DNA from: Patescibacteria group bacterium | Lineage (GTDB): Bacteria > Patescibacteriota > Patescibacteriia > UBA1558 > GWA2-36-10 | DNA length: 64,000 nt | Direction: 5' to 3' | Assembly (NCBI GenBank): GCA_041665545.1 | Contig: JBAYIQ010000003.1 | Span: 3,222-67,221, forward strand | The notes under the pieces: model-generated | What the model saw: only the letters and a program-made list of their open reading frames with translations | What the model was told of the DNA's origin: nothing | Database searches by the model: none | Position numbers and translations under genes: made by a program | Shown here: positions 41,795-57,962 of the stretch, piece by piece | Layout of the letters: each line of letters opens with the position of its first letter | Numbering within the stretch: the stretch's first letter is position 1

Positions 41795-43159
41795 TTATCT
41801 TCCTAAAGCAATATTAAACATGGCGTTGATAGTTTTGAGGATAATAGAGACATCCAAGGCCACGGATTGATTTTTGATATAAAATAAATCGTATTGCAAT
41901 TTTTCTTTGGCGTCAGCCACAGATGCTCCGTAGGGGTAATTTATCTGTGCCCAGCCAGTGAGTCCCGGCTTGATCAAATGCCGTTCGTTATAAAATGGTA
42001 TTTCTTGTCTGAGTTGCTCCACAAACTCCGGTCTTTCGGGCCTAGGGCCCACAAAACTCATATTGCCAATAATAATATTAAGAAATTGTGGTATTTCATC
42101 CAAGCGAGTGCGTCGCAAAAGCTTGCCAATTCGAGTGATGCGGGCATCATTGATTGAGGCCCAGACAGCGCCGTTTTGCTCAGCATTTTCCTGCATAGTG
42201 CGGAATTTATATACTTTGAATTTTTTGTTGTTTAAGCCAACTCGTTCTTGTTGGTAAATTATTTTTCCTTTGGATTCTAGCTTTATAGCTATGGCGATAA
42301 AAGGAATCAAAATAAGCGATATCAAGCCAAAGAACCAGGCAAAAAATAAATCAATAAATCTTTTAGCAATTTCAAAACCATTTTTACTTCGGCTATTGAA
42401 GTTTTCCAAAAACCAATTTTTCTCCAAGAGCATCAAGGGGATTTTGCCAATTATTTTTTCATAAAAATTGGTTAGGTTGTAGTACTGGATTTTTAGATTG
42501 ATATTTTCAAATAAGTAGCGGGACACTTCGGCAGCATATTTAGGATTATTAACCACTACCACTGTTTGAATCTTGTGTTTCAAAAATTCATTTTTCAGAT
42601 CATTTAAGTTTTTACTGATCGGAATAATTTGGAATTTTTCCGGTACAGTGACAAAATCCGGGTTGATAATCAATTTTAATTGGTAGCCCAGTTGTGGTTT
42701 ATTAATTATTTCTTCGGCTAGGGCTAGCGATTCATCATTGAGGCCGATCAGCGCTAAATTACTACCCAAAGATCGGCTGGATATTAGTTTGTAAAAAGAT
42801 TTTCGCCAAACAAAAAATAAGCTTGCATAAACAGCCAGGAGAATTAAGAGTATGGTTTGTGGTCTCATCTGGCCAAAATCATCGGAAAAAATGTAGAAAA
42901 AAACAACAGCCAAAGCGGCGTTGATGCCAAGGTTTTGTAATAGGTTGCTGTAGAAACTAAAATCAACACGGACTTTTTTGAATTCGTACAGCCCGTTGAT
43001 AAAAAAGACAATCAGCCAGATAGCAAAAATAATGCTGAACGGCCATAAGTGCCTATTCCATAAATTCTGGTTAAGATAACCATAGCGTATCCAGAGAGTT
43101 AGGGCTAAGCTGAAATAGAGTACGAATATATCGCCTAGTAGTAATAGTCCTTTTTTCAT
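41795..43159 (-). CDS. polyprenyl-phosphate sugar phosphotransferase (bacterial sugar transferase, WbaP/PssY-like initiating enzyme)
   Basis: 454 aa. N-terminal TM helices, Rossmann-like middle, C-terminal catalytic domain KPGLTGWAQINYPYGASVADAKEKLQYDLFYIKNQSVALDVSIILKTI (Bac_transf). Confidence 0.75.
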   Translation of the reverse strand: MKKGLLLLGDIFVLYFSLALTLWIRYGYLNQNLWNRHLWPFSIIFAIWLIVFFINGLYEFKKVRVDFSFYSNLLQNLGINAALAVVFFYIFSDDFGQMRPQTILLILLAVYASLFFVWRKSFYKLISSRSLGSNLALIGLNDESLALAEEIINKPQLGYQLKLIINPDFVTVPEKFQIIPISKNLNDLKNEFLKHKIQTVVVVNNPKYAAEVSRYLFENINLKIQYYNLTNFYEKIIGKIPLMLLEKNWFLENFNSRSKNGFEIAKRFIDLFFAWFFGLISLILIPFIAIAIKLESKGKIIYQQERVGLNNKKFKVYKFRTMQENAEQNGAVWASINDARITRIGKLLRRTRLDEIPQFLNIIIGNMSFVGPRPERPEFVEQLRQEIPFYNERHLIKPGLTGWAQINYPYGASVADAKEKLQYDLFYIKNQSVALDVSIILKTINAMFNIALGR

Positions 43160-43243: not shown

Positions 43244-45406
43244 ATGTTAAAATTTTCCAGTTATTTTTCTGAAAAAGATGCGATTTGGAAATTAATTATT
43301 CGTTTAGGTTTGGTGTTGGTACTTTTTGCACCGCTGGTTATTTATAATGGCTCTTATTTTCCTTTTATATTTCCGCGCAATATTTATTTTCGCCTGATTA
43401 TCGATATTATTTTTCCGCTTTATTTGTGGCTAGTAATTAAAAACACCTACCAGTGGCCAAAGTTTAATAAGGGTCTAATCTTCTTTGTCTTATTTATTTT
43501 GACGCTTACTATATCAAGTATTTTTGGCGGACATTTTCTTTTTAGTTTTTGGAGCACTTTTGAGAGAATGGATGGCCTGGTCAACTGGTATCACATTTTG
43601 ATGTATGTCATTGTTTTATTAGGTGTCAATCGCAGTGAAAAAGATTGGCATGTTTTGTTTAAGACCTCAATATTTGTGGCTTGGATTGTGGCTTTTTATG
43701 CTCTTGGTCAAGCCATGAATTTGAGCTTTGTAATGCCTTCGTCTGGTGGTCAGCGTTTGGCCAGCTTATTAGGCAATGCGGCCTATGTTGGCTCCTATTT
43801 ATTCTTGAATATCGTGATAGCCGTCTATTTGATAGTCAAGAAAATTCAAAATAAAGACTTTTTTTCTTGGGGAGTTTTTTATTACGCTTTAGGTATTATT
43901 TTGTTTGTGGCTATTTTGTTAGCCACCGAGACCAGGGGCGCTTTCTTAGGTTTATTTTTGTTTGTTTTTTTATTTTTGTTGGCTTATTTATATTATGAGC
44001 GGCGCAAAAGAAATATTTTTTATTATGTTGTTGTCGGGCTTATGGTCTTGGGGCTTATTTTTATCAGTTCTATTTTTACCCAAAAAAATAGTGCTTGGGT
44101 AAAATCAGTACCAACTTTTTCTCGTTTAGCCAACATATCTTTGACTGACACCACTACTCAATCGCGATTAATGATTTGGAAAAACAGTGTTTTGTATTCT
44201 TTTAAAGAAAAGCCATTGTTGGGCTGGGGTGAGGAAAATTTTGCCGATGCTTTTAATAAATATTTTCCTTCCGAGATTTTTGTGAGTATGGGCAGTGAGA
44301 TCTGGTATGACCGGCCACATAATATTTTGGTGCAACATCTAGTGCAGGGCGGCTTAGTGGGTTTTGGTCTTTATTTGGCAATTTTTATTTATTTGCTTTT
44401 ATATTTAAAAAAATTGATCAAGCAAAATAATAGCTGGCCGGTGCCAGTGCTGTGGGCGGCATTTTTGTTTGGCTTTTTGGCGCAAGATTTTTTTATTTTT
44501 GACAATCTTAATGTTAATGTTGTTTTTTACCTAATATTGGCCTATTTATTTTCATTGGTAGTGCCAGCCGGCCAATTTAATTCTCGATTTTATAACTGGT
44601 TTTTAGCTTGGCGAGATAAATTAAATCAAAGACGGACAAACTTACTTATCAGGGGAATACTACTAGTACTATTAAGTATTTCTTTGGTTTATTTTATGAT
44701 TTGGAAACCCTGGCAAAGTAACACAATTTTTGTAAAAACACTTTCTTCGGCTTCGCAAGCCAAGACAGCCGAAGATTTTGCCAAAGTAAAAAATGATTGG
44801 TTGCGCGCCTACTATACTGTACCCTTGGGTGATAAGGAAAAAATCGCTGGTTTGAATGATCTATTGGGCTTGATAATTGCTAATCCTTATGCTACTAACG
44901 ATGTCAGATTTGAATTTATTAATTTAACTGGGCAATATTTGGAAGCCAATTATGAAAAATATCCCATGGATATTCGGTCGGGCATGTTTCTGTCTAATTT
45001 TTATCAGTTTTTAGGCACTTTTGATAATTCCTTTATTGATCAAGATATTGTCTTACTGGAGCGCATGGCCAAGCTTGCGCCACAAAGATTAGAGATAAAA
45101 TTCGCTTTGGAAAATGATTATATAAAGAAAGGTGATTTAGTGAAAGCCAAAGAGCAAGTTTTGTTGGCCATAGATTTGGCGCCAAAGTCCAGAGATGTTT
45201 ATTGGAAGTTAGTGGAAATATATTGGCGGACTCAAGAATATCAAGAATTTGATGTGACTGTACAAAAAGTACGCGATTGGAATGGCGAAACAAACATGGG
45301 TAAATTTGACCAAACACAGAAATCTGATTTAAATAATTATTTACAGCAGGCCAAATCCGCCAAGCAAAAAGAATTAGTTGATATGCTAGAGGATTTTTTG
45401 CGGTAA
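43244..45406 (+). CDS. O-antigen ligase (Wzy_C) family membrane protein with C-terminal TPR domain (paralog 3)
   Basis: 720 aa. Polytopic N-terminal domain with TETRGAFLGLFLF and YDRPHNILVQHLVQGGLVGFGLYL motifs. C-terminal TPR-like repeats. Confidence 0.6.
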   Translation: MLKFSSYFSEKDAIWKLIIRLGLVLVLFAPLVIYNGSYFPFIFPRNIYFRLIIDIIFPLYLWLVIKNTYQWPKFNKGLIFFVLFILTLTISSIFGGHFLFSFWSTFERMDGLVNWYHILMYVIVLLGVNRSEKDWHVLFKTSIFVAWIVAFYALGQAMNLSFVMPSSGGQRLASLLGNAAYVGSYLFLNIVIAVYLIVKKIQNKDFFSWGVFYYALGIILFVAILLATETRGAFLGLFLFVFLFLLAYLYYERRKRNIFYYVVVGLMVLGLIFISSIFTQKNSAWVKSVPTFSRLANISLTDTTTQSRLMIWKNSVLYSFKEKPLLGWGEENFADAFNKYFPSEIFVSMGSEIWYDRPHNILVQHLVQGGLVGFGLYLAIFIYLLLYLKKLIKQNNSWPVPVLWAAFLFGFLAQDFFIFDNLNVNVVFYLILAYLFSLVVPAGQFNSRFYNWFLAWRDKLNQRRTNLLIRGILLVLLSISLVYFMIWKPWQSNTIFVKTLSSASQAKTAEDFAKVKNDWLRAYYTVPLGDKEKIAGLNDLLGLIIANPYATNDVRFEFINLTGQYLEANYEKYPMDIRSGMFLSNFYQFLGTFDNSFIDQDIVLLERMAKLAPQRLEIKFALENDYIKKGDLVKAKEQVLLAIDLAPKSRDVYWKLVEIYWRTQEYQEFDVTVQKVRDWNGETNMGKFDQTQKSDLNNYLQQAKSAKQKELVDMLEDFLR

Positions 45407-45433: not shown

Positions 45434-45470
45434 AGAGAGCTTTATGCACACAAAGCTCTCTTTGTTTTTG
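45434..45470 (+). terminator. rho-independent terminator
   Basis: AGAGAGCTTT (45434-45443) pairs with AAAGCTCTCT (45452-45461) around an 8-nt loop, followed by TTGTTTTTG. Confidence 0.65.
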
Positions 45471-45489: not shown

Positions 45490-45510
45490 TTAATCAACAA
45501 AAATAAAAAA

Positions 45511-46653
45511 GTGAAGTTAGTAGAAACAAAAATATACCTCAAGTTTATTCTCTGGTTTTTGGCTGTGGCTCTTTTGCCACTAGCAGTTTTATTAGGTGCT
45601 TTTTCTATTTCTGAGCAGTACCGCGGTTTTTTCCAAATGGGCAATTTACCAGCTAATGTTTTGATTGGTATCTTTGTTTCTTTGGCTATGGTTTTGGGAC
45701 TTTCTATGATGGCCACTAGGCGTTTGAGTAAAAGTATTACAGCACCAGTCCAAAGCTCGGTCAAAGAATTAAGTAAAGTGGTGAATTTGCTTCTTAATTC
45801 AATTCAGGGCTTATCAGATATTAGCCAAACCAATAATCAGATTTCTCAGTTTTTAACAACTTCCTCTCAACAACAACAAAGTGGCTTGAAATCAGGCAGT
45901 CAGTCATTATCCAAAATGGTGCGCTCTTTAGTAGAGATTACTCATAAGACCGGAGCAGCAACTACTAGCGTGAACAAGGCCAATAAGTTGGCTGAAGAGG
46001 GCAAGGCGCAGTCGGAGAATGCTTTGGCTAGCTTGGTGGCTGTGAAAAATCTTTTGACTGATACCCAAAAGTTGAGCCAAGCCCTTGATCAGTATGCCCA
46101 ACAAGTAGCCGAGATTGCCAAAAGAGTTGAGGCCGTAGCTGAAACAACCAAGTTCTTTAGCTTGAATATGTCTATAGAGGCCAAAAAAGCCCCATACAGC
46201 GAGGAATTTACCGGTCTGGTGGCTCAGATAAGAGATCTTAACAATATTAGCGAACAAGCGGCTAGTAGCATCCAAACACTGGCTCAAGATATGCATCGTC
46301 AAATTGATCAGTCCAAAAAGTCAGCCGTTTATGAATGGCAGGAAACCAACAAAAGCATCAATGTCGTTAGTCAAACCTTGAGTTTTTTAACAAAAATTAT
46401 CAGTAATATTTCAAGCATTGCTCACGATATTCAAGTGGTAAATACTGAAACTACCAAAACATCTCAAGATGCTGATCAGGTCAATAAAGTCATTTCTAAT
46501 ATTTCCCAACAGTCAAAATTGCTAGTCAAGCAGACGGACGATATTACCAAAGTCATACAGGAACAGTTGGTGGTCACGAGATCGCTTAATAAATCCTCGG
46601 TGGCTTTAAATAAAGTGACTGATACCTTGAATGATTTAGTGGGAAAGAATTGA
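45511..46653 (+). CDS. methyl-accepting chemotaxis protein-like transducer (divergent, no periplasmic sensor domain)
   Basis: 380 aa. Two N-terminal TM helices separated by only ~15 residues. Long Q/S-rich coiled coil. Core TTKFFSLNMSIEAKKAPYSEEFTGLVAQIRDLNNISEQAASSI parallels the MCP signalling-domain core ([32 protein letters not shown]). Confidence 0.45.
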   Translation: MKLVETKIYLKFILWFLAVALLPLAVLLGAFSISEQYRGFFQMGNLPANVLIGIFVSLAMVLGLSMMATRRLSKSITAPVQSSVKELSKVVNLLLNSIQGLSDISQTNNQISQFLTTSSQQQQSGLKSGSQSLSKMVRSLVEITHKTGAATTSVNKANKLAEEGKAQSENALASLVAVKNLLTDTQKLSQALDQYAQQVAEIAKRVEAVAETTKFFSLNMSIEAKKAPYSEEFTGLVAQIRDLNNISEQAASSIQTLAQDMHRQIDQSKKSAVYEWQETNKSINVVSQTLSFLTKIISNISSIAHDIQVVNTETTKTSQDADQVNKVISNISQQSKLLVKQTDDITKVIQEQLVVTRSLNKSSVALNKVTDTLNDLVGKN

Positions 46654-46654
46654 T

Positions 46655-47071
46655 ATGCCGGTCAAAAAACAACAATTTATTACTTTCAAGATAGCCGGAC
46701 AGATTTTGGCCGCTCCTTTGAATAAAGACAGTCAATTTTTTAGTTGTGAATATTTGTTGCCACTGCCTATAAATAATAAATATTTAGCCGGGATTTCTTA
46801 TCTCAATGGTCAATTAGTGACAATCTTACGAACAGATAAATTTTTTGGCTTAAATTGGAAGATGCCTAGCAATCCGCAGTGTTTGCATTTTAGTTACCGT
46901 GAGGATTTTTATGGTTTGGCAGTTGATCAGGGCTTGGACACTATTTCGGTCACTCAAATTTTTCAAGAAAAAAGCAGAAATATTTTTAATAAATATATAA
47001 AAATAAATAAGCAAAAAGTTTATATTGTGGATGTAGAGAAGATATTTTCTGAATTAAAAATCTATGTTTAG
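46655..47071 (+). CDS. cheW: CheW-like coupling protein
   Basis: 138 aa. QFITFKIAGQILAAPLNKDSQFFSCEYLLPLPINNKYLAGISYLNGQLVTILRTDKFFGL fits the CheW domain pattern. 8-nt overlap with the downstream cheA-like gene. Confidence 0.55.
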   Translation: MPVKKQQFITFKIAGQILAAPLNKDSQFFSCEYLLPLPINNKYLAGISYLNGQLVTILRTDKFFGLNWKMPSNPQCLHFSYREDFYGLAVDQGLDTISVTQIFQEKSRNIFNKYIKINKQKVYIVDVEKIFSELKIYV

Positions 47072-48614
47072 CGAAAAGTACAAAGATTTGTATTTGTCCA
47101 CTACCCAAGCCAAGCTCAAAGAAATGGCCGATGTTTTGCTTTTGTTAGAAAAAAATCCTAAAAATCAAGAGTATTTAAAAACTTTATTTATCAGTTTGCA
47201 TGCCATGAAGGGCTCGGCGGCCACCATGGGTTACAAAGGCACTATTGTTTATTTACATCAGGTAGAGTCCGTGATTCAAGCTATGATTAATGGCACTTTG
47301 CCAGTTGGCAAAGATAATTTGGATCTTATTTTTAGAGCTTGTGATACCTTGCAGGCCAATTTGCAAAACATAAATCATCATAGCCAAGAACTTGATTTTC
47401 AGACATTTATTGCTGAACTAGAAAAAATATTAAAATCTCCTGTAAAAATAAAAAAAACAGATAAGACTGTAAGCAAGCAAGAGCCAGTTGATTTGGTGGC
47501 TCCCCATGAAAACACAGAGATGATTGTGGCTGCCAAACAGCTTGATAAGATACAAAATATACTCGATGATTTGTTGGTAAATATCATGGGTATCAAGGGG
47601 GCGGCTGTCAAAAGTGGCCAGAGCCAAATTTTGTCCAGCACCATGACGGCGGATACCTTGGCCAACAACTTACGGCGCGAACTAGAAAGGATGCGCATCG
47701 TGCCTTTGGAGCAGGTGTTTTCCAATCTGCCTTATTTGGTGCGCTCTATAGCTCATGATGAGCGCAAAAATGTCAATTTAGTCATTGAACACAATAATAT
47801 ATCGCTTGATAAATCAATTTTGGATGAGTTGGTAGAAATTATCGTGCAGTTGATCAAGAATTCGGTTGTTCATGGTATCAAATCCAAGCCATCAGCCGGG
47901 CAAATATTATTGAGCGCCAATATAGAATCTGATGAGCTAGTGGTGACGGTCAGTGATAATGGCCGAGGCATTGATTGGTCAAAAGTTCTGGCTCTAGCTG
48001 TCAATAAACGCGTCATCAGTGTCGAGGAAAGTCGTAAAATAAAATTGTCTGATATTCCTAGCCTGCTTTTTCATACTGGCATGTCCAGCAAAAAAAACAT
48101 GGATATTCATGCTGGCCGAGGAGTGGGTTTGAGCGTGGTCAAAGATCGCTTGAAAAAATTAAACGGCCAGGTGGAAGTAGTCAGCGCCCTAAACAAAGGC
48201 ACCAAGTTTATTTTGCATTTGCCTTTACCTTTATCAATTTTTCGCAGTATTGCCTGGCAAGTAGGCGATTGGCCAATGGCTATACCACTGTCTTATGTTG
48301 AGCGGGTGATCAAACTGCCGGAAGTAAAGGATGTCAGCAATGATAAATATTTTGTTTATAATAAAAAAAAGATAAAATTGCTAAACTTAAGATCAATATT
48401 GCCGCTAGATATCAAAGCGCCAGCTAAATATATTTTATTTTTGAATATCCAAAAAAATATTTTTGCTTTACCAATATCCAGTAATATCAAAGAAAGTGAA
48501 TTAGTAATGAAAAAAAATCCTTCTATTATGAAGCTCTTGCCAAAATTTAGGGGCCTAGCAATTTCTTCTTCTGGTAAAGTCAACTTGATTTTAGATATTA
48601 ATAATTTGCTATAG
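47064..48614 (+). CDS. cheA: CheA-like histidine kinase
   Basis: 516 aa. HPt domain with phospho-His motif LHAMKGSAATMGYKG (His codon 47199-47201), dimerisation helix, HATPase_c (VVTVSDNGRGIDWSKV; GRGVGLSVVKDRLKKLNGQVEVVS) and C-terminal CheW-like domain. Confidence 0.7.
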   Translation: MFSEKYKDLYLSTTQAKLKEMADVLLLLEKNPKNQEYLKTLFISLHAMKGSAATMGYKGTIVYLHQVESVIQAMINGTLPVGKDNLDLIFRACDTLQANLQNINHHSQELDFQTFIAELEKILKSPVKIKKTDKTVSKQEPVDLVAPHENTEMIVAAKQLDKIQNILDDLLVNIMGIKGAAVKSGQSQILSSTMTADTLANNLRRELERMRIVPLEQVFSNLPYLVRSIAHDERKNVNLVIEHNNISLDKSILDELVEIIVQLIKNSVVHGIKSKPSAGQILLSANIESDELVVTVSDNGRGIDWSKVLALAVNKRVISVEESRKIKLSDIPSLLFHTGMSSKKNMDIHAGRGVGLSVVKDRLKKLNGQVEVVSALNKGTKFILHLPLPLSIFRSIAWQVGDWPMAIPLSYVERVIKLPEVKDVSNDKYFVYNKKKIKLLNLRSILPLDIKAPAKYILFLNIQKNIFALPISSNIKESELVMKKNPSIMKLLPKFRGLAISSSGKVNLILDINNLL

Positions 48615-48616
48615 CT

Positions 48617-49033
48617 ATGCCAAATCCAAAGATACTATTTGTGGATGATGACAATTTTTTGCGCAAGGTCTATGAAGCCGAATTGAAGGAAAAGAATTTT
48701 GAGGTTGTTCTAGCGTCTGATGGCGAAGAGGGTTTGGAAAAAGCCCAACTGGAAGATCCCGATTTGATAATTTTGGACATGATCATGCCCAAGAAAAGCG
48801 GTTTTGAAGTGTTGACCGAATTACAACGCAATCCAAAAACCAGAAACATTCCGGTGATTATTTTATCCAATCTTGGTCAGGAAGACGACAAGAAAAAGGG
48901 AATTGATTTGGGGGCAGTTGATTATTTGATTAAGGACAATATAACTCTCGGCATACTGGTTGATAAAATAAATCAGTATTTAAACTCGCGTACGCAGAGC
49001 AAACAAGCCAAAATTAATTCAGTAAAAATATAA
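48617..49033 (+). CDS. cheY: CheY-like single-domain response regulator
   Basis: 138 aa. KILFVDDDNFLRKVYE...DLIILDMIMPKKSGFEVL...LSNLGQEDDKKKGIDLGAVDYLIK. Acidic pocket, phospho-acceptor Asp and conserved Lys present. No output domain. Confidence 0.7.
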   Translation: MPNPKILFVDDDNFLRKVYEAELKEKNFEVVLASDGEEGLEKAQLEDPDLIILDMIMPKKSGFEVLTELQRNPKTRNIPVIILSNLGQEDDKKKGIDLGAVDYLIKDNITLGILVDKINQYLNSRTQSKQAKINSVKI

Positions 49034-49036
49034 GCC

Positions 49037-50722
49037 ATGGCCATAGTTACTGATGAAAAAGTTTATCAAATTATTAATAAATACGGTTTGATTAAGCCTG
49101 ATGTTTTGGATACGGCCTTAAAAACCGCTCAGGCCCAAAAATTGGATTTTGTTAGTTTTTTGATTGATCAGGAATTGATAAAAGCCCTGGAAATTGGCCA
49201 GCTGATTGCTAATAATTTACACGTCAAATATGTAAATTTGGCTAAGGAAAATATAAAAGCCGAAATTCTGACGCAATTGCCAGAAATTGTGGCTCGTAAG
49301 CAGAAGATGCTTATTTTTAAGCGTGATGCTGAAGGCACTCATGTAGCCATGGCCGATCCTTTTGACTACCCAATGGTCAAGGCCTTGGAGAAAAAATTGG
49401 GTGACAAAGTAATTCCTTATTATTCTACGGAGCATGAGCTAGAAGAAGGATTACGTTTGTACAAAAAAAGTATACAGACTGAATATGTCAGTAATATCCA
49501 AAAAAATGCCATCAAGGCCCAAGGGGCTTCCAAGGAGGATGTTTCGGTCATTAGATTGGTTGATGATATTATCAATTACGGTTTTATGAATCATGCTTCG
49601 GATATTCATATTGAACCAACAGAAAAAGAAATTGTGATTAGATTCCGAATTGATGGCTTGCTTTATGACATCATGAATTTGCCAAAAAACATTTTGGACA
49701 TGATTGTCACTAGAGTCAAGATTTTGGCCAAGTTGCGCACTGATGAAACCAGAGCTTCGCAAGATGGAAAAATAATGACGGAGGTAGAGGGCAGTAAGCT
49801 AGATGTCAGAGTTTCAGTTTTGCCCATCGTGCATGGTGAAAAAATAGTTATGCGTCTTTTGTCTTCCCAGGGAAAATATTTTACTTTGGAAGAATTAGGT
49901 ATGAATGAAAAGGATTTAACAGCGATCAATGAAGCAATTAGTAAGCCCTATGGCATGGTCTTGTCCACTGGTCCGACTGGTTCTGGTAAAACTACCACCT
50001 TATATTCACTAATAAAAATACTTAACAAACGCGATATAAACATCTGTACTATTGAGGATCCAGTAGAGTATAGTTTGGATGGTGTCAATCAAGTGCAGGT
50101 CAATCCCGCCACTAATTTGACTTTTGCGGCTGGCTTGCGTTCCTTGCTTAGACAAGATCCAGACATTATAATGGTTGGTGAAATTCGCGACAATGAAACA
50201 GCTGGTATTGCCATCAACTCGGCCATGACCGGTCATTTGGTTTTGTCTACCTTACACACCAATGACGCCGCCACAGCCCTACCCAGGTTCCTTGATATGC
50301 AGATTGAGCCATTTTTGGTGGCCTCGACTGTTAATATTATCATTGGGCAAAGATTGATCAGGAAAATTTGTATGAAATGCATTTATAGCTATACACTTTC
50401 AGCTCAAGAAATTGCCGATATAAAAAGAGAAATCAATATTGATAAATTTGTCAACACTGCCCAAGTCAAAGAAATTCGTCTGTATCGCGGCAAAGGATGT
50501 GATGCCTGCAACCACACCGGCTATACTGGTCGTATTGGTATTTTTGAAGTTTTAAAAATTGAAGAAAATATCAGAGAGTTGATTGTAGCCAGAGCTGATT
50601 CTGATCAACTAAGTAAAGTAGCCATTAGCAATGGCATGACTACCATGCTGGAAGACGGTTTCACCAAAGCTTTTTCTGGCAAAACAACTATTGAGGAAAT
50701 ATTTAGAGTGACCAAACAATAA
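49037..50722 (+). CDS. pilB: type IV pilus assembly ATPase PilB/GspE family
   Basis: 561 aa. N-terminal T2SSE_N-like domain. Walker A GPTGSGKTT. MVGEIRD Asp box. Tetracysteine CMKC...CDACNHTGYTGRIGIFE. Confidence 0.8.
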   Translation: MAIVTDEKVYQIINKYGLIKPDVLDTALKTAQAQKLDFVSFLIDQELIKALEIGQLIANNLHVKYVNLAKENIKAEILTQLPEIVARKQKMLIFKRDAEGTHVAMADPFDYPMVKALEKKLGDKVIPYYSTEHELEEGLRLYKKSIQTEYVSNIQKNAIKAQGASKEDVSVIRLVDDIINYGFMNHASDIHIEPTEKEIVIRFRIDGLLYDIMNLPKNILDMIVTRVKILAKLRTDETRASQDGKIMTEVEGSKLDVRVSVLPIVHGEKIVMRLLSSQGKYFTLEELGMNEKDLTAINEAISKPYGMVLSTGPTGSGKTTTLYSLIKILNKRDINICTIEDPVEYSLDGVNQVQVNPATNLTFAAGLRSLLRQDPDIIMVGEIRDNETAGIAINSAMTGHLVLSTLHTNDAATALPRFLDMQIEPFLVASTVNIIIGQRLIRKICMKCIYSYTLSAQEIADIKREINIDKFVNTAQVKEIRLYRGKGCDACNHTGYTGRIGIFEVLKIEENIRELIVARADSDQLSKVAISNGMTTMLEDGFTKAFSGKTTIEEIFRVTKQ

Positions 50723-50724
50723 AT

Positions 50725-51939
50725 ATGCAGTTTAATTATAAATTAACTGATAACAAAGGAAAAATTAGCAAAGGCAAATTAGAAGCTGCTAATATTCAGG
50801 AAGCTCGCAATCGCTTGGCTTTGCAAGAGGGGACTTTGGTTTCTTTGGAACAGCGCGGTCAAGAAAAAGAAGGTGCTTTAAAGAAGCAGTTTATTATTGG
50901 CAATATGCGCTTGGTAGATCGAGTCATGATGTCCAAGCATTTGTCAGTCATGATAAAATCTGGCATGTCTATTGATAGTGCTTTGGAAGTCTTAGGCGAT
51001 GGTTCTTCGCCCCTGATTCGTGATCGTATGATTGGCCTACTCAATGAAGTGCGCAAGGGTAATTCTTTTGCTAATGCTTTAAAAAAATATCCCAAAGATT
51101 TTAATAAATTGTTTGTCAACATGGTGGCGGTCGGGGAGTCATCAGGCACTTTGGCCAAAAATTTGGAAATTTTGGCTGTTCAGCAACACAAAACTTATGA
51201 GTTGCGCAGTAAGATAAAAGCCGCTTCAATTTATCCCATAATAGTTTTGATTGCGGTCTTGGGCTTGATGACCATGGTGTCCACGCTGGTTTTGCCAAAA
51301 CTCAAAACTTTTTTTACGGCCTTAGGTGATAATATGCCGCCCTTAACTAGATTTTTGCAGGCGGCTTCTAGTTTCTTAAGTAGCTATTGGTGGCTAATTA
51401 TTGCCTGTGTTGTTGGTATCACTGTGCTAGCCCAAGTGCTAGAGCGTTTTTATAACACTCGTCTTTGGCTACACTATTTTTATTTAAAAATACCAATAGT
51501 CGGGCACATTATTCGTCAAATGAATCTAGCTTTGTATTGTCGGACCATGGCTTCATTATTGAATAGTGGCATCACGATTGACCAGTCGTTAAAAATTGTT
51601 TCTGATACTTTGACCAACGCCGTTTATCGCGAACAATTACTCATTGTTTATCACAATATTTTGAAAGGTAATGCTCTGTCTGATGCCATGGCTAATCGCC
51701 ATTATTTTCCGCCAATGCTTTTTCGTATGATCAAAGTTGGAGAAAATTCTGGCAACTTAAGCGAAGTGCTGGACTACTTGGCTGATTTTTATGAGGAAGG
51801 TGTTGACAATGCTGCTAAAAATTTTTCAAGCACCTTAGAGCCGGTATTGTTGATTATGATTGGTTTGACAGTTGGTGTGGTGGCTCTTGGTATTATCCAA
51901 CCAATATTTAAGTTAATGGAATTGTCTGGGGGTCAATAA
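50725..51939 (+). CDS. pilC: type IV pilus platform protein PilC/GspF family
   Basis: 404 aa. Two T2SSF repeats, three TM segments, typical GspF-family layout (…LLNSGITIDQSLKIVSDT…). Confidence 0.75.
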   Translation: MQFNYKLTDNKGKISKGKLEAANIQEARNRLALQEGTLVSLEQRGQEKEGALKKQFIIGNMRLVDRVMMSKHLSVMIKSGMSIDSALEVLGDGSSPLIRDRMIGLLNEVRKGNSFANALKKYPKDFNKLFVNMVAVGESSGTLAKNLEILAVQQHKTYELRSKIKAASIYPIIVLIAVLGLMTMVSTLVLPKLKTFFTALGDNMPPLTRFLQAASSFLSSYWWLIIACVVGITVLAQVLERFYNTRLWLHYFYLKIPIVGHIIRQMNLALYCRTMASLLNSGITIDQSLKIVSDTLTNAVYREQLLIVYHNILKGNALSDAMANRHYFPPMLFRMIKVGENSGNLSEVLDYLADFYEEGVDNAAKNFSSTLEPVLLIMIGLTVGVVALGIIQPIFKLMELSGGQ

Positions 51940-51973: not shown

Positions 51974-52549
51974 TTGATTAATTTTAATTTGAATTTTCCA
52001 GTGAACAAAAGTATAAAAAAATTATTTATTGTTGAAAATAACGACTTTGATTTTTCTAGGGCTGGTTTTACTTTGCTTGAGGTTTTGTTGGTTATAGCAA
52101 TTATGCTGATTTTATTATCCTCAAGTGCCTCACTCTTGGGTAGTCGTACTCAAGAAAAGGGTTTGGATGCTAGCGCCCGAGCAGTAGTGGAACATATTAG
52201 TAAAGCTAGGAATTACGCGGCTACTGGTTATTTTTCTGATGCTTGGGGTGTAAAAATACTGGACAACAATTCAGCCTGTTTCAATAGCGGAGATTGCGTG
52301 GTAGTTTTTAAGGGTAAAAATTATACTACCCGTGATAGCGTTTATGATAGTATTTTTGATTTAAAAAATGGCGTTTCGTTATCTAGCAATCAACAAAACG
52401 AATTTTATTTTTCCCAAGTAGCTGGTTGGCTGAGTACTACGACAGTTGCTTATGAAATGACCGAACAGCGAATAATTTTGGTCAATACGGTTAGTCAACA
52501 AAAAATAGTCAGCACCACACCGGCTGGCTTAGTTTATTATGGCGATTAA
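51974..52549 (+). CDS. prepilin-type N-terminal cleavage/methylation domain protein (minor pilin/pseudopilin)
   Basis: 191 aa. Class III signal ...SRAG|FTLLEVLLVIAIMLIL (Gly -1, Phe +1, Glu +5) preceded by an unusually long 32-aa leader. True start may be an internal non-ATG codon. Confidence 0.6.
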   Translation: MINFNLNFPVNKSIKKLFIVENNDFDFSRAGFTLLEVLLVIAIMLILLSSSASLLGSRTQEKGLDASARAVVEHISKARNYAATGYFSDAWGVKILDNNSACFNSGDCVVVFKGKNYTTRDSVYDSIFDLKNGVSLSSNQQNEFYFSQVAGWLSTTTVAYEMTEQRIILVNTVSQQKIVSTTPAGLVYYGD

Positions 52550-52552
52550 GTT

Positions 52553-55500
52553 ATGCCAAAAAGAATTAAAATAAAAATTTTAAAAAAATTGTCGGGCTTT
52601 TCTCTGGTAGAATTAATAGTGGCTATTGGCATTTTTTCTATTTTAGCTTCGGGCGTGGTTTATGTTTTTGTCACCTCTTACAAAAATTTTTTTGGTGTTG
52701 GCGATAAACAAGTCGTAGTCCAGTTTGCCCAAGAAGGTATGGAAGCGGCGCGTAGCATCAGAGATAATGGCTGGCAAACTATAGTAGAAAATGCCGATGG
52801 TGATCCCAAGGGCGTGCAAAAAACCAATGGCCTTTGGCAGTTTAGTGGCGTTGATAATACTTTAGGTGATTTGACTAGAGTGATAGTAGTCAGCGCTGTC
52901 GAGCGCAATAGTACTGGTTCTATCGTAGATTCAGGTGGTACTGATGACCCAGATACAAAAAAAGTTACGGTCACTGTATCTGGCACAGGCATAGCCGATT
53001 ATGTTTTGGTTACTTATTTTACCAATTGGTCAGCCAAAACTTGGGAGCAGTCTGACTGGTCTGGCACTGGCTCAAATGAGTTCTGGGCGAGTATGATTAC
53101 GGCTTCATCTTCCTATAGTGATATAAGCACCACTACTGCTGGTCAACTGACTCTTACTTCGCGATCTGGCACTTCTATGAGTTGGAATGCTTGGGCTGAT
53201 CTAGAGCCAGACACAACCACCAACTATATTGCTTATCGTGATGCCTATGATATTCATATGTCAAGCGACAACAACAGCATGTATGTTGTGGGCACAACAA
53301 ATCATCAATTATTAAAATATGATATTTCTAAGGCCTATGCTGGTATTGTGTCCATCCAATTAAAAAAAGTATTGCCTTGGCACATGAGTCAAATGGTTTT
53401 AAATCCCAATGGTAATTATGCCTACCTTGGTCGTAGGGCGCATGCTTATGGTGTTGGCGCGGTTTGTGTGGCCGATTTGACCAATACTAATACTATTGTC
53501 TCGGGAGATTGTGTGAATGTTACATCGGCTTACACAGGTGTTTTTATTATGGATATGGTGGTTACGGCGGCTGGTGATTGGTTATACATGTTTGATAATC
53601 AGGGCTATGCTTATTCTTTTGCTATATCAAATGGAGGTGCCACCTTGACTCTGGTTAATGATGCTCAGCTTATAGCGTCAGCTGGAGGTAATAGTATCAA
53701 TGGTGTTTATTTGGATGAATCGGGGGCTAGTCCATATATTTATATAGTGAGTGATGATAATTCTGGGGAATTTAGGAAAATGGGGGTCAATGTTGGCTTT
53801 TATTTTAGTTCTACTTCTACCTCCGCTTATGTTGATAGCACCTATACTACTGATATTACTAGCCTAAAATTTTTAGAAGCAGTGTCTAGTAAGAATAGAT
53901 TTATTTTTGGCACAGAAAATTCTTCAGCTGAATTATTGATAGTCGAAGATCAGGGGAGCTCTTTGACACAATTGGGTAGCTATAATTTATCAACTAGTCA
54001 AAGTTCGGCGGTAGTTGATTATGACGGAGCTAATACGGCTTTTATTTATTATTATAGTCCGGCTGGGTTGTATACGGTAGATATAACCAATAGATCCAAT
54101 CCAATTGACGGCGGTTTAGTAAAAAGTTTTGCTCGCCGAGCAAATGACTATCCTTATTCTGGCTTGGCTTATAGTTCAACAGCGCATGGTTTGTTTTTAT
54201 TGGAACACAATACTACCGATAATACGGTTAATTTATATTATGTAGGAAAACCACTGACCAGAGCTACAGGCGGTACTTATAATTATAAACGAAAGATTAC
54301 TTTGGGTCTTACTGATAAAGTTTCTGCTGGGCCACACACTGATTTTCCAGTAGTGATTTCGGAAACTCAAGATTATCTAAAGTCAGTGGCCAATGGGGGC
54401 AAAGTGGAAAGCGCTAATGGCTATGATATTATTTTTACTTCTGATGTGGATGGCAACACGCTCCTGGATCACGAAGTAGAGTATTATGATCCGGTTACTG
54501 GTGAATTTACGGCCTGGGTAAAAATTCCTTCACTAGCCAGCAACACAGAAATTTATATGTTTTATGGCAATACCAGCGTTACTGCTAGTCAGGAAGATGT
54601 GTCTGGTGTTTGGAGTAATAGCTATCAAATTGTCAATCACATGGTTGATGATTCAACAACTGGCACAAAAACAAGTATTTATGGGGGCAATTCGGCCTAT
54701 AAGAATGGCGTCAACTCTCCTATTCAGTCCACTGGTAAAATTGGACGCGGTCAAGCTTTTGATGGCGACAAGATCACTACGCCCTATGATTGGATTACTA
54801 TAGATAATTCGCCAAATAAGATACAAGGTACCAGTGATTTTACAGTAGAGTTTTGGATCAATCCATCTTCTACTTATACTATTGCCAATGAAGCACCGGT
54901 TTATTTTGGTTGTGGAGATCTGGGTAAGCAAGATGGTTGGATGTTTGCTTATGATCCTGCTAGCACTAAAAGACTGCGTTTTGCCATGGGCGACAATAAT
55001 GTTACTAATTTAAGTGGTTTATATACGACCGCTTTGACTAGTGATATTTGGACCCATGTGGCCTTGACTGTAGATAGAGATCTTGGTTATCAAGCGTATA
55101 TAAATAGCAATACAGATAGTAGTTGTTTAGTTGCTCCGTGTAATGATACTATTGCTTATTCAATTGGAGAAGTATATTCCGGATATCTTGGTAGATGGTG
55201 GTCAGCTACGGATTATTTTTTTAAGGGTGATTTGGATGAGTTTAGAGTATCTTTGACCAAGCGTGCTCAGGGCTGGATTACCACTGGCTATAATAACATG
55301 AATGCCACTTCTACTTTTTATAGTATTGACACAGAGAGCATAGCCAACGGCTATGAGCCCTCGGGTTATATTTATTCTTCCATTTATGATCTTGGTTCTA
55401 CTGACAAAGTATTGACTAGTTTGAATGTTAATCAAAATGTGCCAAGTGGTTGCTCACTGTCAGTAACTTTGGAAGGATCCAATGATGCTTCATTTGCTAC

Positions 55501-55666
55501 TTATACCAGCAAAGAAGTGACTGATAATAGTGTAGCTAATTTTACCACTAGCACTCCGGCTACTCTGAATAATTTTAGATATGTAAGATATCGCTTGGCT
55601 CTTACATCCTGCAATAATAATACGCAAACTTCCACTTTATATTCTTTGCGTTTAAATTTTCGTTAA
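52553..55666 (+). CDS. giant prepilin-type protein with DUF2341 and concanavalin-A-like (LamG) domains (candidate pilus-tip adhesin)
   Basis: 1037 aa. N-terminal LSG|FSLVELIVAIGIFSILASGVV prepilin motif. Central YKRKITLGL...DFPVVISE...DIIFTSDVDGNTLLDHEVEYYDPVTGEFTAWVKIPSL...IYMFYGN matches the DUF2341 pattern. C-terminal LamG-type motif GDLDEFRVSLTKRAQGW. Confidence 0.6.
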   Translation: MPKRIKIKILKKLSGFSLVELIVAIGIFSILASGVVYVFVTSYKNFFGVGDKQVVVQFAQEGMEAARSIRDNGWQTIVENADGDPKGVQKTNGLWQFSGVDNTLGDLTRVIVVSAVERNSTGSIVDSGGTDDPDTKKVTVTVSGTGIADYVLVTYFTNWSAKTWEQSDWSGTGSNEFWASMITASSSYSDISTTTAGQLTLTSRSGTSMSWNAWADLEPDTTTNYIAYRDAYDIHMSSDNNSMYVVGTTNHQLLKYDISKAYAGIVSIQLKKVLPWHMSQMVLNPNGNYAYLGRRAHAYGVGAVCVADLTNTNTIVSGDCVNVTSAYTGVFIMDMVVTAAGDWLYMFDNQGYAYSFAISNGGATLTLVNDAQLIASAGGNSINGVYLDESGASPYIYIVSDDNSGEFRKMGVNVGFYFSSTSTSAYVDSTYTTDITSLKFLEAVSSKNRFIFGTENSSAELLIVEDQGSSLTQLGSYNLSTSQSSAVVDYDGANTAFIYYYSPAGLYTVDITNRSNPIDGGLVKSFARRANDYPYSGLAYSSTAHGLFLLEHNTTDNTVNLYYVGKPLTRATGGTYNYKRKITLGLTDKVSAGPHTDFPVVISETQDYLKSVANGGKVESANGYDIIFTSDVDGNTLLDHEVEYYDPVTGEFTAWVKIPSLASNTEIYMFYGNTSVTASQEDVSGVWSNSYQIVNHMVDDSTTGTKTSIYGGNSAYKNGVNSPIQSTGKIGRGQAFDGDKITTPYDWITIDNSPNKIQGTSDFTVEFWINPSSTYTIANEAPVYFGCGDLGKQDGWMFAYDPASTKRLRFAMGDNNVTNLSGLYTTALTSDIWTHVALTVDRDLGYQAYINSNTDSSCLVAPCNDTIAYSIGEVYSGYLGRWWSATDYFFKGDLDEFRVSLTKRAQGWITTGYNNMNATSTFYSIDTESIANGYEPSGYIYSSIYDLGSTDKVLTSLNVNQNVPSGCSLSVTLEGSNDASFATYTSKEVTDNSVANFTTSTPATLNNFRYVRYRLALTSCNNNTQTSTLYSLRLNFR

Positions 55667-57067
55667 ATGAAATTTGTTAAATCAAAATCAGCTGCCGGGT
55701 TTACCAAGTTAGAGAAATTAGTTAATTTTAATTTTTATTTAAAAGTGGAAAAATTTAGCAAAAAAATATTTAATTTTAAAAATAAGAATTTAGGTGTTTC
55801 TCTAACTGGGTTCACTCTATTGGAGGCTATAATTTATCTAGCTATAGTTGGCATTATCATCTCAGCGGTAGTTGATTTTGCAATTACTATGGGCAACACC
55901 ACGGCCAAGATGAGTGCCAATATTGATGCTTCGCGCAATCGTCGCTTTGCTTTGACCACGGTCAATTATTTGATTAGAAATGCTGATGGACTATTGAAAG
56001 ATGTTAATGGTGATTGTTCCAATTTGAGTGTCAATCCGCCAATACTAGCTTTGTATTTTGATAATGATAATTATCTGCCGGGTACCTGTGTCGAAAAAGG
56101 CGGAGGAGTAAAAATTACAGTTGTTAATAACAGGTTGAAGCTGACTTGTTACCCCAACATTACTAACAACGGCCAATATAACGCTTGCGCGGCTACGGCT
56201 GATGCCACTTATTTTTTGACTGGTCCGGAAGTGCTAGTCACTAATAATAATTTAGACTTTACAACTAGCACAGCTTCTACAACAGCCAATAGCTATAGCA
56301 CAGTCACCACGCACCTGAAAGCTACCTTGCCCTCGGCTGACCAAATAAGCTTACGCGCTAGCTCGGAAGCAACCAGTACGGCTGTGATGCGCAATGAACA
56401 ACCCAATGGTCTTATTTCTTGGTACAAATTTGATGATTTAGTTACCACGGCATCAGTAGACAATGTCAATGGCAATACCCTGACTTGCGATGGTTCGCCA
56501 GCTATTGGACCAGTTACACCGGGCCTAGTTACTGGTTCTACGGGATCCTTTGATTTTGAATTCAGTAATAGCAATTCATGTTATACTAGTTCTGATCCAG
56601 CTAATCTGAATTTTAACAATGCCTTTACTTTGGCGGCTTGGATCAAGCCAGAATCTCTGGGCGACAATTATCGAATTATTGACAAAGGTGACGGGGCTAG
56701 TAATTATAAGGGCTATGAAATGTGGGTTAATGCTGATGGCACATTGAATTGCCGCGTCTACAATGGCACGACCGATCAGACCATCAGCTCAGTTTCCGGC
56801 GATATAGTGGCTGGCAATACCTATCACGTAGCTTGCGTTTATGATAGAGTGGCTGGTATTTTCCAAGTTCATGTTTATAAAAAAGCCGTTGGTGGAGTGT
56901 CAACTTCCACCTCACCCACAACAGTAAATTATTTAGTAAATTTTAGTCAGGTTTTTCAAGTTAGTAAAAATGCTTATTTTGATGGGGTTATTGATGAACT
57001 AAGAGCATATAATCGTGCTTTATCAAATTCAGAGGTTTGGGCTCTACAATCCCAAGGAGCAAATTAA
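55667..57067 (+). CDS. prepilin-type protein with C-terminal LamG/concanavalin-A-like lectin domain
   Basis: 466 aa. LTG|FTLLEAIIYLAIVGIIISAVV prepilin motif after a long leader (an earlier degenerate GFTKLE motif also present). C-terminal GVIDELRAYNRALSNSEVWALQS is a classic LamG_3 signature. Confidence 0.6.
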   Translation: MKFVKSKSAAGFTKLEKLVNFNFYLKVEKFSKKIFNFKNKNLGVSLTGFTLLEAIIYLAIVGIIISAVVDFAITMGNTTAKMSANIDASRNRRFALTTVNYLIRNADGLLKDVNGDCSNLSVNPPILALYFDNDNYLPGTCVEKGGGVKITVVNNRLKLTCYPNITNNGQYNACAATADATYFLTGPEVLVTNNNLDFTTSTASTTANSYSTVTTHLKATLPSADQISLRASSEATSTAVMRNEQPNGLISWYKFDDLVTTASVDNVNGNTLTCDGSPAIGPVTPGLVTGSTGSFDFEFSNSNSCYTSSDPANLNFNNAFTLAAWIKPESLGDNYRIIDKGDGASNYKGYEMWVNADGTLNCRVYNGTTDQTISSVSGDIVAGNTYHVACVYDRVAGIFQVHVYKKAVGGVSTSTSPTTVNYLVNFSQVFQVSKNAYFDGVIDELRAYNRALSNSEVWALQSQGAN

Positions 57068-57068
57068 T

Positions 57069-57962
57069 ATGTTGAGTAAAACAAAAAAATTAAATTCTGG
57101 TTTTGTGGCTCTGATATTTGTGATCATGGTTACGTCGCTTTTTATTGTTTCTAGTGTTATTATCGCTATGGTCAATACTTCCAACAACATGGCCAATTAT
57201 CACGTGGCAGAATCAGACGATGTCATGTATAATATTGATGCTTGCCTGAGCGATGCCATGTGGCAGATTGCTTCTAGCACTAGTGCTTCAGGCGATTATT
57301 CTATCAGTAATGTCGGGGGCATAACTTGCGTTTATCAGATTTCTGCTACGGCCTCTGGTTTAAAAACAGTCACTTCCACAGCTACTACTACCTCTGATGT
57401 TGGCTCTTGGAATCGTTCGGTAGTAATGAGAGTCAATGTTTCTAGCTCGCCGTTTTTTATTCAATCGCACAAGGATTATTTGGCCGGAACGTGTTTGAAC
57501 AATTCCTGTTGTGATGATGGCGTCTGCAATGCTACGGAAACTTGTAGCACCTGCTCGGCTGATTGTGGGACTTGTCCGGTCTGTGGCAATGGCACCCCAG
57601 AAACAGGAGAGGACTGCGACGATGGCAATGCCATCAACACCGATGATTGCCTTGATACTTGTGTTAGCCCTTCTTGTGGTGATACTTTTACTTGGGCTGG
57701 ACATGAAGCTTGTGATGATGGTAATGCGATCAATACAGATGATTGCCTTAACACTTGTGTTAGCCCCTCTTGTGGCGATACCTTTATTTGGGCTGGTCAT
57801 GAAACTTGTGAATTTACGGATGAATCTTATTATTGCGAGCCACGAGCTGAGGATTGGTGTGGAAACTGCGTGGATAGTCCAGTGGTTTGTCCTAGCAGAG
57901 AAGACAGTGCTTATTTTTGTCACCAGTGTGTATCCAATAGATTCCTCTGCACAGGTTGTTAA
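57069..57962 (+). CDS. PilX_N-like minor pilin with tandem Myxococcus-type cysteine-rich repeats
   Basis: Start moved to ATG 57069 (the listed ORF begins inside the previous gene). N-terminus KLNSGFVALIFVIMVTSLFIV resembles the PilX N-terminal domain. C-terminal half has two 32-aa Cys-rich repeats (CDDGNAINTDDCL.TCVSPSCGDTF.WAGHE) plus further Cys pairs. Confidence 0.5.
   Translation: MLSKTKKLNSGFVALIFVIMVTSLFIVSSVIIAMVNTSNNMANYHVAESDDVMYNIDACLSDAMWQIASSTSASGDYSISNVGGITCVYQISATASGLKTVTSTATTTSDVGSWNRSVVMRVNVSSSPFFIQSHKDYLAGTCLNNSCCDDGVCNATETCSTCSADCGTCPVCGNGTPETGEDCDDGNAINTDDCLDTCVSPSCGDTFTWAGHEACDDGNAINTDDCLNTCVSPSCGDTFIWAGHETCEFTDESYYCEPRAEDWCGNCVDSPVVCPSREDSAYFCHQCVSNRFLCTGC
57612..57803 (+). 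repeat. 96-bp tandem duplication (2 copies) inside the Cys-rich pilin-like gene
   Basis: Copy 1 ~57612-57707, copy 2 ~57708-57803. Nucleotide differences are mostly third-codon-position (GGC/GGT, GCC/GCG, ACC/ACA); protein repeats are near-identical. Confidence 0.6.

Follow-up and report, generated by a model that had tools for sequence, protein, structure and literature searches.

In the Pil-Chp system of Pseudomonas aeruginosa, the Tfp class of Wuichet and Zhulin, a Che-type pathway has the type IV pilus as its output. The system comprises the MCP PilJ, the CheW PilI, the CheA ChpA, two CheY-like receivers, PilG and PilH, and the adaptation enzymes CheR (PilK) and CheB (ChpB), and its input has been proposed to be pilus-related rather than a classical ligand. 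Its genes are not known to be fused to pilBC. ChpA has multiple Hpt domains and ends in a receiver (PMC10782961), and phosphorylated PilG (PilG-P) polarises the extension ATPase PilB (PMC11181946). In the Tax1/Pix pathway of Synechocystis (PixJ-PixL-PixG/PixH), pilus extension is directed by a receiver acting on the motor: only phosphorylatable PixG interacts with PilB1 and with the N-terminus of PilC (PMC11181946). The F1 class comprises Che systems of Firmicutes, Thermotoga and, with CheF/ArlCDE, archaea. The archaeal F1 system is described as controlling the archaellum, a type IV filament motor with a PilB-related ATPase (PMC7534055). Here, we describe a minimal Che gene set adjoining type IV pilus motor genes in a 64,000-nt stretch of contig JBAYIQ010000003.1 (GenBank assembly GCA_041665545.1, Patescibacteria group bacterium), the whole of which is referred to below as the window. 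We read this operon, with a probability of about 0.6, as a minimal, adaptation-free Che phosphorelay dedicated to the type IV pilus, in which the phosphorylated receiver would act on PilB/PilC.

Patescibacteria have been reported to lack flagella, chemotaxis and motility (PMC7137472). Our literature search returned no description of this operon; only for Peribacteria and a rhizosphere Saccharibacterium were che genes and twitching mentioned, and then in passing. The general idea of Che-linked pili in these bacteria has therefore been raised before, but the literature searched seems to contain no account of the conserved minimal operon, of its F1-like ancestry or of its receptor without a sensor.

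The core of the locus consists of six genes, all on the + strand:

45511-46653, + strand: MCP-like transducer, 380 amino acids (Pfam MCPsignal)
46655-47071, + strand: CheW coupling protein, 138 amino acids (Pfam CheW)
47064-48614, + strand: CheA histidine kinase, 516 amino acids (Pfam Hpt, HATPase_c, CheW)
48617-49033, + strand: single-domain response regulator, a CheY-like receiver (REC), 138 amino acids (Pfam Response_reg)
49037-50722, + strand: PilB-type type IV pilus extension ATPase, 561 amino acids (Pfam T2SSE and MshEN)
50725-51939, + strand: PilC platform protein, 404 amino acids (Pfam T2SSF)

The initial annotation had placed four Che genes head-to-tail in front of pilB and pilC. Its open reading frame (ORF) coordinates were exact, and the spacings ranged from an 8-nt overlap to 3 nt: from the MCP gene through cheW, cheA, the receiver gene and pilB to pilC, the successive distances were 1 nt, an 8-nt overlap, 2, 3 and 2 nt. 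In a Pfam scan of every window ORF of at least 100 amino acids, the matches of all six core proteins were above the curated cut-offs, and the four proteins previously read as chemotaxis components all matched chemotaxis domain models.

The che and pil genes are predicted to be co-transcribed, and a terminator scan returned no terminator-like hairpin between the receiver gene and pilB. One element lies in the 104-nt spacer between the receptor gene and the Wzy_C gene upstream of it:

45434-45461, no strand assigned: terminator-like inverted repeat with a 10-12 bp stem, followed by the T-run TTGTTTTT

This hairpin weakly indicates that the che and pil genes probably begin a transcription unit of their own at this point. 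An extended -10-like sequence, TGTTATAAT, was spotted by eye after the hairpin, at ~45492-45500. The totals of the promoter and terminator scans were not above those of shuffled sequence, and only the hairpin at 45434-45461 was used. Rfam and tRNA scans of the window returned no RNA elements.

To place the locus among its relatives, we relied on a one-genome-per-species scan, which yielded 29 Patescibacteria loci whose CheA was between 91% and 34% identical to that of the window. ORFs were called in these loci and searched with hidden Markov models (HMMs) built from the window proteins. Every sufficiently long locus had the same order: a Bac_transf gene on the minus strand and, further on, MCP-CheW-CheA-REC-PilB-PilC-pilin-large pilin-pilin-unknown-PilM, usually with a Wzy_C gene directly before the MCP gene. 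All six core genes were present in 24 loci, and CheW was found in 28 of the 28 loci that reach its position. Median gaps across the loci were -8 nt for CheW-CheA, 2 nt for CheA-REC, 6 nt for REC-PilB (maximum 56) and 4 nt for PilB-PilC. The order MCP-CheW-CheA-REC-PilB-PilC-pilins was found again in an outgroup whose CheA (P0045) is 30% identical to that of the window. Three receiver homologues (68-71% identity), sampled from a separate protein search whose listing reached down to 63% identity, all lay in the full operon on unrelated metagenome contigs, and none was a receiver-pilB pair without che genes. The recurrence of the six-gene arrangement is far beyond chance, and the deep conservation of gene order strengthens the earlier claim of an operonic che-pil fusion.

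The proteins of the operon differ in how closely they are conserved. Within the clade, identity to the window proteins was 55-95% for REC and 63-95% for PilB, 35-91% for CheA, 27-92% for CheW and 33-90% for the receptor, which makes REC and PilB the most constrained pair of the operon. The genome had been described as similar to those of the candidate phyla radiation (CPR). Indeed, exact and close homologues came only from metagenome-assembled genomes (MAGs) of Patescibacteria, Parcubacteria and Komeilibacteria, and close homologues of CheA, the receiver and the receptor were all named Patescibacteria, Parcubacteria, Komeilibacteria or Nomurabacteria. Ten operon-bearing MAG records (L005-L007, L009, L010, L022, L027, L029, L030 and L032) are titled 'uncultured Gammaproteobacteria bacterium'; these titles are probably unreliable, since the records carry the same operon at 35-84% CheA identity, and they look like placeholders or mislabels. 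The organisms concerned are uncultivated. Contigs with proteins identical to those of the window came from JGI, ENA and Logan metagenomes.

Using a profile of the clade CheAs against 1.84 billion cluster representatives, only six proteins (513-523 amino acids) scored above 600 bits. The next single-match proteins reached at most 368 bits, multi-domain or repeat proteins summed their matches to as much as 494 bits, and ~22,000 representatives were matched at E <= 1e-30. The CheA family is small and sharply bounded.

The kinase had been annotated with HPt, kinase and CheW-like domains. Pfam bore this out (Hpt, 26.6 bits; HATPase_c, 62.2; CheW, 27.9), and the dimerisation domain (P3), which Pfam did not call, was located by the alignment of the clade profile with Thermotoga maritima CheA, continuous through P3-P4-P5 (1B3Q, ~231-232 bits) from position 153. 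The profile also aligned with P1 and P3-P5 of Escherichia coli CheA. The domain order is P1(Hpt)-P3-P4-P5, with no P2 and a P1-P3 linker of only ~40 residues. P1-P3-P4-P5 is the minimal core of all CheAs, more than half of which have no P2 (PMC10782961); the window CheA carries all four core domains defined in that study (Hpt, dimerisation, HATPase_c and CheW-like). Clade CheAs are 511-524 amino acids long, and in 25 of them the following residues are invariant: the phospho-acceptor His46 (HxMKG); N266, H270 and G271 of the N box; D298-N299-G300 and G302 of the G1 box; F336; and G351-R352-G353 and G355 of the G2 box. The coupling protein matched Pfam CheW with 35 bits over model positions 1-136 of 138.

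The receptor matched MCPsignal with 48.3 bits (cut-off 34.6; E 1.4e-12). It consists of a conserved N-terminal peptide, a first transmembrane helix (TM1), a variable outside loop of ~15 amino acids, a second transmembrane helix (TM2) and a hairpin of ~44-heptad length. In an AlphaFold2 model built from a 46-sequence alignment (mean predicted local distance difference test score, 78.8), helices span residues 2-36, 46-226 and 231-377, separated by a disordered loop at 37-45 and a turn at 227-230. Helix 2-36 corresponds to the N-terminal peptide and TM1, and helix 46-226 is unbroken, TM2 running straight into the N-arm. Neither Pfam nor the model revealed a HAMP domain or a sensor or extracellular domain. 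The top PDB matches of the model in Foldseek were models of Bacillus subtilis McpB/YvaQ and the cytoplasmic domain of T. maritima TM1143, the latter aligned over its whole length (309-313 columns); TM1143 was also matched in a PDB search. The hairpin arms have ~157 and ~147 residues, lengths that fit the 44-heptad (44H) class, to which TM1143 and the B. subtilis receptors belong, and that make the receptor a candidate member. The hairpin tip reads SIEAKKAPYSEEFTGLVAQIR; the canonical tip is longer by one residue, and the near-universal 13-letter tip consensus is absent.

A search with the receptor found 79 relatives, most of them 379-401 amino acids long with a few fragments or longer gene calls, and no relatives outside the family. 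Conservation along the protein is uneven. The outside loop is the least conserved region (mean top-residue frequency, 0.36), and the best conserved stretch is residues 1-11 (MKLVETKIYLK; 45511-45546), at 0.84 vs 0.75 for the tip; K2, E5, T6, K7, I8 and Y9 are invariant in the 46 sequences. This pattern suggests that the 11 N-terminal residues are a candidate cytoplasmic docking peptide. The outgroup receptor (L088:4948-6837, 629 amino acids) has a ~260-residue extracellular domain, without a Pfam match, between its transmembrane helices, and the same HAMP-less junction as the window clade. Because the outgroup keeps this domain where the clade has a ~15-residue loop, the sensor domain was seemingly lost in the lineage of the window.

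These features bear on what the receptor might sense. Lacking a ligand-binding domain, the receptor is not an obvious sensor of a host compound in the classical chemosensory sense. Since the outside loop is short and variable, and the N-terminal peptide and transmembrane helices are the most conserved elements on the sensory side, a membrane- or machine-borne cue, such as the pilin pool, pilus load or membrane state, is likelier than a soluble ligand; that the membrane or the pilus machine provides the input is our speculation from conservation. Taken further, the module could serve, in place of chemotaxis, as a feedback sensor of the pilus machine, of the mechanosensing or pilin-pool-sensing kind that has been proposed for Pil-Chp; the receptor would read pilins, PilC or PilM in the membrane, and the receiver would adjust extension to match. 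We consider this a tentative possibility that differs from the pilus-dedicated phosphorelay proposed above in its input, not its output. The variable loop, the best-conserved N-terminal peptide, the lack of HAMP and sensor domains, the apparent loss of the domain that the outgroup keeps, and the lack of detected adaptation enzymes are all in keeping with it. However, sensor-less receptors also respond to membrane potential, temperature and pH, and the basis for a feedback loop consists of conservation patterns.

The reduction extends to the adaptation enzymes. Matches to CheR, CheB_methylest and CheC/D/Z were not found by Pfam among the window ORFs of at least 100 amino acids. For the 10-kb flanks, we used public contigs that carry identical genes, bringing the total inspected to ~84 kb: the flanks contained no cheR, cheB or CheC/D/Z gene, and no flagellar family was matched in the whole ~84 kb. 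The initial annotation's statement that the window has no CheR, CheB or flagellar gene held in the scan and applied equally to the flanks. CheB was likewise not found, as a CheB-like REC match, within 10 kb in the related loci, where CheR had no model of its own, and neither CheR nor CheB appeared in the Pfam gene tables of three metagenome contigs and the outgroup locus. No CheV and no CheF/ArlCDE-type adaptor was seen at the locus. 

The receiver, which had been called CheY, matched Response_reg with 87.6 bits. The description as a single-domain protein 3 nt from pilB was accurate; its assignment was not, as the protein is a generic receiver nearer to PhoB/PleD than to the CheY equivalogs. 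In NCBIfam and PDB searches, it scored best with PhoB/PleD-type receivers and was not placed as a CheY, PilG or PilH equivalog. The acidic pocket D10-D12, the phospho-acceptor D54, S84 and K105 are invariant in the clade alignment, and Y102 is conserved in all clade sequences but one. In the lineage of the window, the C-terminal tail is ~25 amino acids long. The receivers of basal members and the outgroup (L024:11568-12230, L028-L031 and L088:8827-9429) have instead a C-terminal extension of 60-90 amino acids ending in a CxxC...CxxC zinc ribbon (Pfam Zn_Ribbon_1/DZR). This ribbon may be an ancestral output or anchoring element of the receiver.

Fuller Che sets are found in other Patescibacteria. 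At locus L035 (4088-16082), the order is an MCP with a four-helix-bundle (4HB) sensor, CheW, an unknown ORF, CheY, a HAMP protein, CheB, CheA, CheC, CheD and a second receiver, followed by PilB-PilC-pilins-PilM; locus L034 has a similar full set upstream of pilB. These loci, mostly labelled Saccharibacteria or 'Patescibacteria group', share with the window the phylum, the pilB-pilC-pilins-pilM genes directly downstream and an orthologous receiver before pilB. They differ in having an MCP of ~600 amino acids, a second CheY, CheB/C/D and a CheA with a recognisable H-kinase_dim domain that is 26-31% identical to that of the window. The window PilB is 51% identical to that of L035. Of the L035 receivers, the one next to pilB is closer to the window receiver (47% identity) than is the CheY of the che cluster (37%), and by sequence the window receiver is best regarded as the orthologue of the pilB-adjacent receiver in the fuller system. 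In three further loci (L037, L041 and L043), the same fuller che cluster does not adjoin pilB.

We compared the CheA with those of the described classes. Its first relatives outside Patescibacteria were Firmicutes CheAs, at ~30% identity. Over the kinase core P3-P5, the clade profile scored ~232 bits against T. maritima vs 192 for the same region of E. coli, and among the NCBIfam models, the haloarchaeal CheA_Halo scored 259 bits vs 138 for the E. coli-type model. The Firmicutes, Thermotoga and haloarchaeal CheA references are of the F1 class. In a midpoint-rooted neighbour-joining tree without support values, which gives a hint only, the window clade and P0045 stood beside other Patescibacteria CheAs and apart from those of Firmicutes and Asgard archaea. 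By architecture and nearest relatives, the system resembles those of the F1 class and appears Patescibacteria-specific in ancestry. The score rankings of the CheA core and the receptor hairpin length, which matches that of McpB/TM1143, are candidate F1 traits; the system differs from F1 systems in having no P2, CheB, CheR, CheC, CheD or CheV, in a receptor that lacks a sensor and HAMP, and in its linkage to pilus genes rather than to a flagellum or archaellum. The CheB/CheC/CheD set of F1 systems is present in L035 and missing from the window. 

The likeness to Pil-Chp/Frz systems that had been put forward would be one of function and not of ancestry, since architecture and nearest relatives are F1-like. 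Pil-Chp likewise combines a Che-type pathway with a type IV pilus output, which is read here from gene linkage. Membership in the Tfp class was ruled out by a CheA with one Hpt and no receiver, a layout constant across the clade, and by the lack of PilK/ChpB and of a second receiver; where Pil-Chp has two receivers as well as CheR and CheB, the window has one receiver, and no adaptation enzymes were seen. Tax1/Pix is, by analogy, the best mechanistic precedent for the putative step from REC to PilB, being a Che-like pathway that directs pilus extension through a receiver on the motor. The two differ in detail. In PixG, a PATAN output domain makes the contact, whereas the window receiver is bare, although some of its relatives end in a zinc ribbon; PixL carries a receiver at its C-terminus, and the Tax1/Pix receptor is a photoreceptor with sensor domains, whereas the window receptor is sensor-less.

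The simplest reading of these comparisons is that F1-like Che systems of one Patescibacteria lineage came to be joined to the pilus operon and that the clade of the window was then reduced to four core genes, keeping the pilB-adjacent receiver. Reduction could also mean decay, the module being a remnant of a fuller chemotaxis system that no longer signals. Relative to the sister systems, the sensor domain, HAMP, P2, CheB, CheC and CheD have been lost; the receptor tip is divergent, and the Pfam scores of the MCP and CheW are weak. We nonetheless judge decay to be very improbable: the catalytic and phospho-acceptor residues stay the same in sequences as distant as 34% identity, the proteins hardly vary in length, and the 29 loci contain no frameshifts or truncations save for one split receptor gene, in L029.

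It is also conceivable, if quite improbable, that the Che proteins regulate another target, as in systems controlling alternative cellular functions, and that adjacency to pilB reflects co-expression only. Such a target could be the genes for glycan synthesis or pilin glycosylation, or a distant effector. A generic receiver without an output domain would suit this arrangement, the zinc ribbon of the basal and outgroup receivers could bind another partner, the Bac_transf and Wzy_C genes are conserved neighbours, and the related che cluster lies away from pilB in the three loci named above. Within the clade, however, the che genes were never apart from pilB/pilC (24 of 24 complete loci and four further loci). 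Furthermore, the terminator-like hairpin probably sets the upstream glycan genes apart as a transcription unit of their own, and it is REC and PilB that share the highest conservation.

In the mechanism that we propose for a relay dedicated to the pilus, the sensor-less membrane receptor and CheW would set the rate of CheA autophosphorylation at His46. The phosphoryl group would then be passed to Asp54 of the stand-alone receiver, a transfer predicted from the residues of the two proteins. By analogy with the described systems, the phosphorylated receiver would contact PilB and/or the PilC platform and so change the frequency of pilus extension, with attachment, twitching or host-cell contact as behavioural outputs. 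Without CheR and CheB, signalling would follow the momentary state of the receptor and would not adapt. Direct control of PilB and the sensing of a host, both put forward in the initial annotation, are accordingly putative. Four points weigh against this proposal. By sequence, the receiver appears to be a generic stand-alone REC. As the receptor tip diverges from the consensus, coupling of the receptor to CheA and CheW is assumed only. Twitching motility is unproven because no PilT was seen within 84 kb. Finally, cheR, cheB, further receptors and other targets of the receiver could be encoded elsewhere in the genome, beyond the ~84 kb inspected.

The pilus genes of the window encode a PilB-type ATPase, PilC, PilM and four N_methyl proteins. 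PilB matched T2SSE with 429 bits and MshEN, the N-domain, with 41 bits; its score of 532 bits with TIGR02538 is under the equivalog cut-off of 676. By eye, its N-terminus fits the cyclic di-GMP motif of MshEN only in part, and we make no claim of cyclic di-GMP binding. PilC matched T2SSF with 200 bits in two repeats and was assigned to GspF/PilC by NCBIfam. Downstream of pilC are the following genes:

51974-52549, + strand: pilin-like gene (Pfam N_methyl)
52553-55666, + strand: large pilin-like gene, 1037 amino acids, with DUF2341 and LamG (Pfam N_methyl, DUF2341, Laminin_G_3)
55667-57067, + strand: pilin-like gene with LamG (Pfam N_methyl, Laminin_G_3)
57015-57962, + strand: conserved ORF without assigned function, its order kept in related loci
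58004-59758, + strand: PilM-like assembly protein, 584 amino acids (Pfam PilM_2, 79.8 bits), its order kept in related loci
59875-60378, + strand: short pilin, 167 amino acids (Pfam N_methyl, 30.8 bits)

The three pilin-like genes at 51974-57067 probably encode minor or adhesive pilins, and the short pilin is a candidate major pilin. A promoter-like site with a TG ahead of the -10 hexamer precedes the short pilin gene (59780-59809), and a pilin gene after pilM was also found in L004, L014, L020, L027 and L030. Just downstream (60577-60618), a sigma-70 sequence that agrees perfectly with the consensus (TTGACA, 17 nt, TATAAT) coincides in part with an inverted repeat of 13 bp; the element lies just upstream of a HlyD-like/ABC/MacB-FtsX transporter operon and looks like a promoter with an operator-like palindrome.

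A second T2SSE protein, as expected for PilT, was not found in the window, in its 10-kb flanks or, up to 10 kb from the operon, in the related loci. The pilus might then serve mainly for DNA uptake or competence, or as a static fibre for adhesion; in that case the Che proteins would gate uptake or attachment, with no taxis involved. CPR pili are often linked to DNA uptake in the literature (PMC11809585, PMC7143001), and the lack of CheR/CheB argues against the sensing of gradients by temporal comparison. Nevertheless, we think this account unlikely. The large LamG-bearing pilins (1037 amino acids) suggest adhesion and not DNA uptake alone, a fast phosphorelay would be unusual as the control of a constitutive uptake machine, and PilT may be encoded elsewhere in the genome.

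Two genes precede the operon:

41795-43159, - strand: polyprenyl glycosylphosphotransferase (Bac_transf; TIGR03025, 374 bits)
43244-45406, + strand: Wzy_C/O-antigen-ligase-like protein, 720 amino acids (Pfam Wzy_C, 78 bits)

In most related loci, too, the Bac_transf gene and the gene for the 720-residue Wzy_C protein directly precede the receptor gene, and their products may act on pilins. They stand at the end of a ~40-kb glycan-biosynthesis island (4083-45406), almost all on the + strand, upstream of the che-pil operon. Among its products are three Wzy_C proteins, two of which have TPR or ARM-like tails, as well as two B12-radical-SAM enzymes and many glycosyltransferases of the GT4/GT2 type. 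A nonulosonic-acid set is also present, consisting of a GATase and His_biosynth pair, a GNAT protein, NeuB, a CMP-sugar cytidylyltransferase, a formyltransferase, two DegT aminotransferases and a Polysacc_synt_2 dehydratase. Given this gene content and the two conserved neighbours of the operon, the pilins could conceivably be O-glycosylated in a PglL/TfpO-like manner, the sugar being of the pseudaminic or legionaminic type. An ORF with a GIY-YIG nuclease domain (10158-10652) and a weakly RtcB-like ORF (16610-17923, 35 bits) lie inside the glycosyltransferase island.

The composition of the window is not uniform. The first 4 kb have a G+C content of 43% vs 30-35% over the next 38 kb. In the region 42000-64000, G+C rises: it is ~0.31-0.34 across the glycan island and 0.36-0.42 beginning with the Wzy_C/che-pil region, and the compositional boundary falls near the start of the operon. 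Near the other end of the window, the ORF at 263-3967 (1234 amino acids) had no Pfam match. The public contig just upstream of the window (L087:1-10000) encodes an IS1595-family transposase, a helix-turn-helix protein, a sigma-70 factor and a DUF5667 protein.

We also considered a more far-reaching version of the proposal. In it, a Patescibacteria-specific lineage would have independently recruited an F1-type pathway to its pilus and cut it to four genes; the receptor would read the pilus machine or the membrane through its N-terminal peptide and transmembrane helices, the bare receiver would gate PilB, and the whole would serve an ultra-small episymbiont as a self-contained touch-and-extend circuit for finding or holding its host. 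Taken as a whole, this scenario is speculative and rather doubtful.

Known cases of Che control over type IV filaments belong to the Tfp class in Proteobacteria and Cyanobacteria and to the F1 class in archaea; the F1-like line of Patescibacteria would be a further case, which suggests that such control arose more than once. Because the system is so small, with one receptor, CheW, a core CheA, a receiver and no adaptation enzymes, it is an attractive minimal model for the in vitro reconstitution of Che-filament control. The operon also bears on how tiny, host-dependent Patescibacteria locate and attach to their partners, as a deeply conserved pathway tied to the pilus motor suggests that, in at least one lineage, the pili are under rapid control, on the time scale of behaviour.

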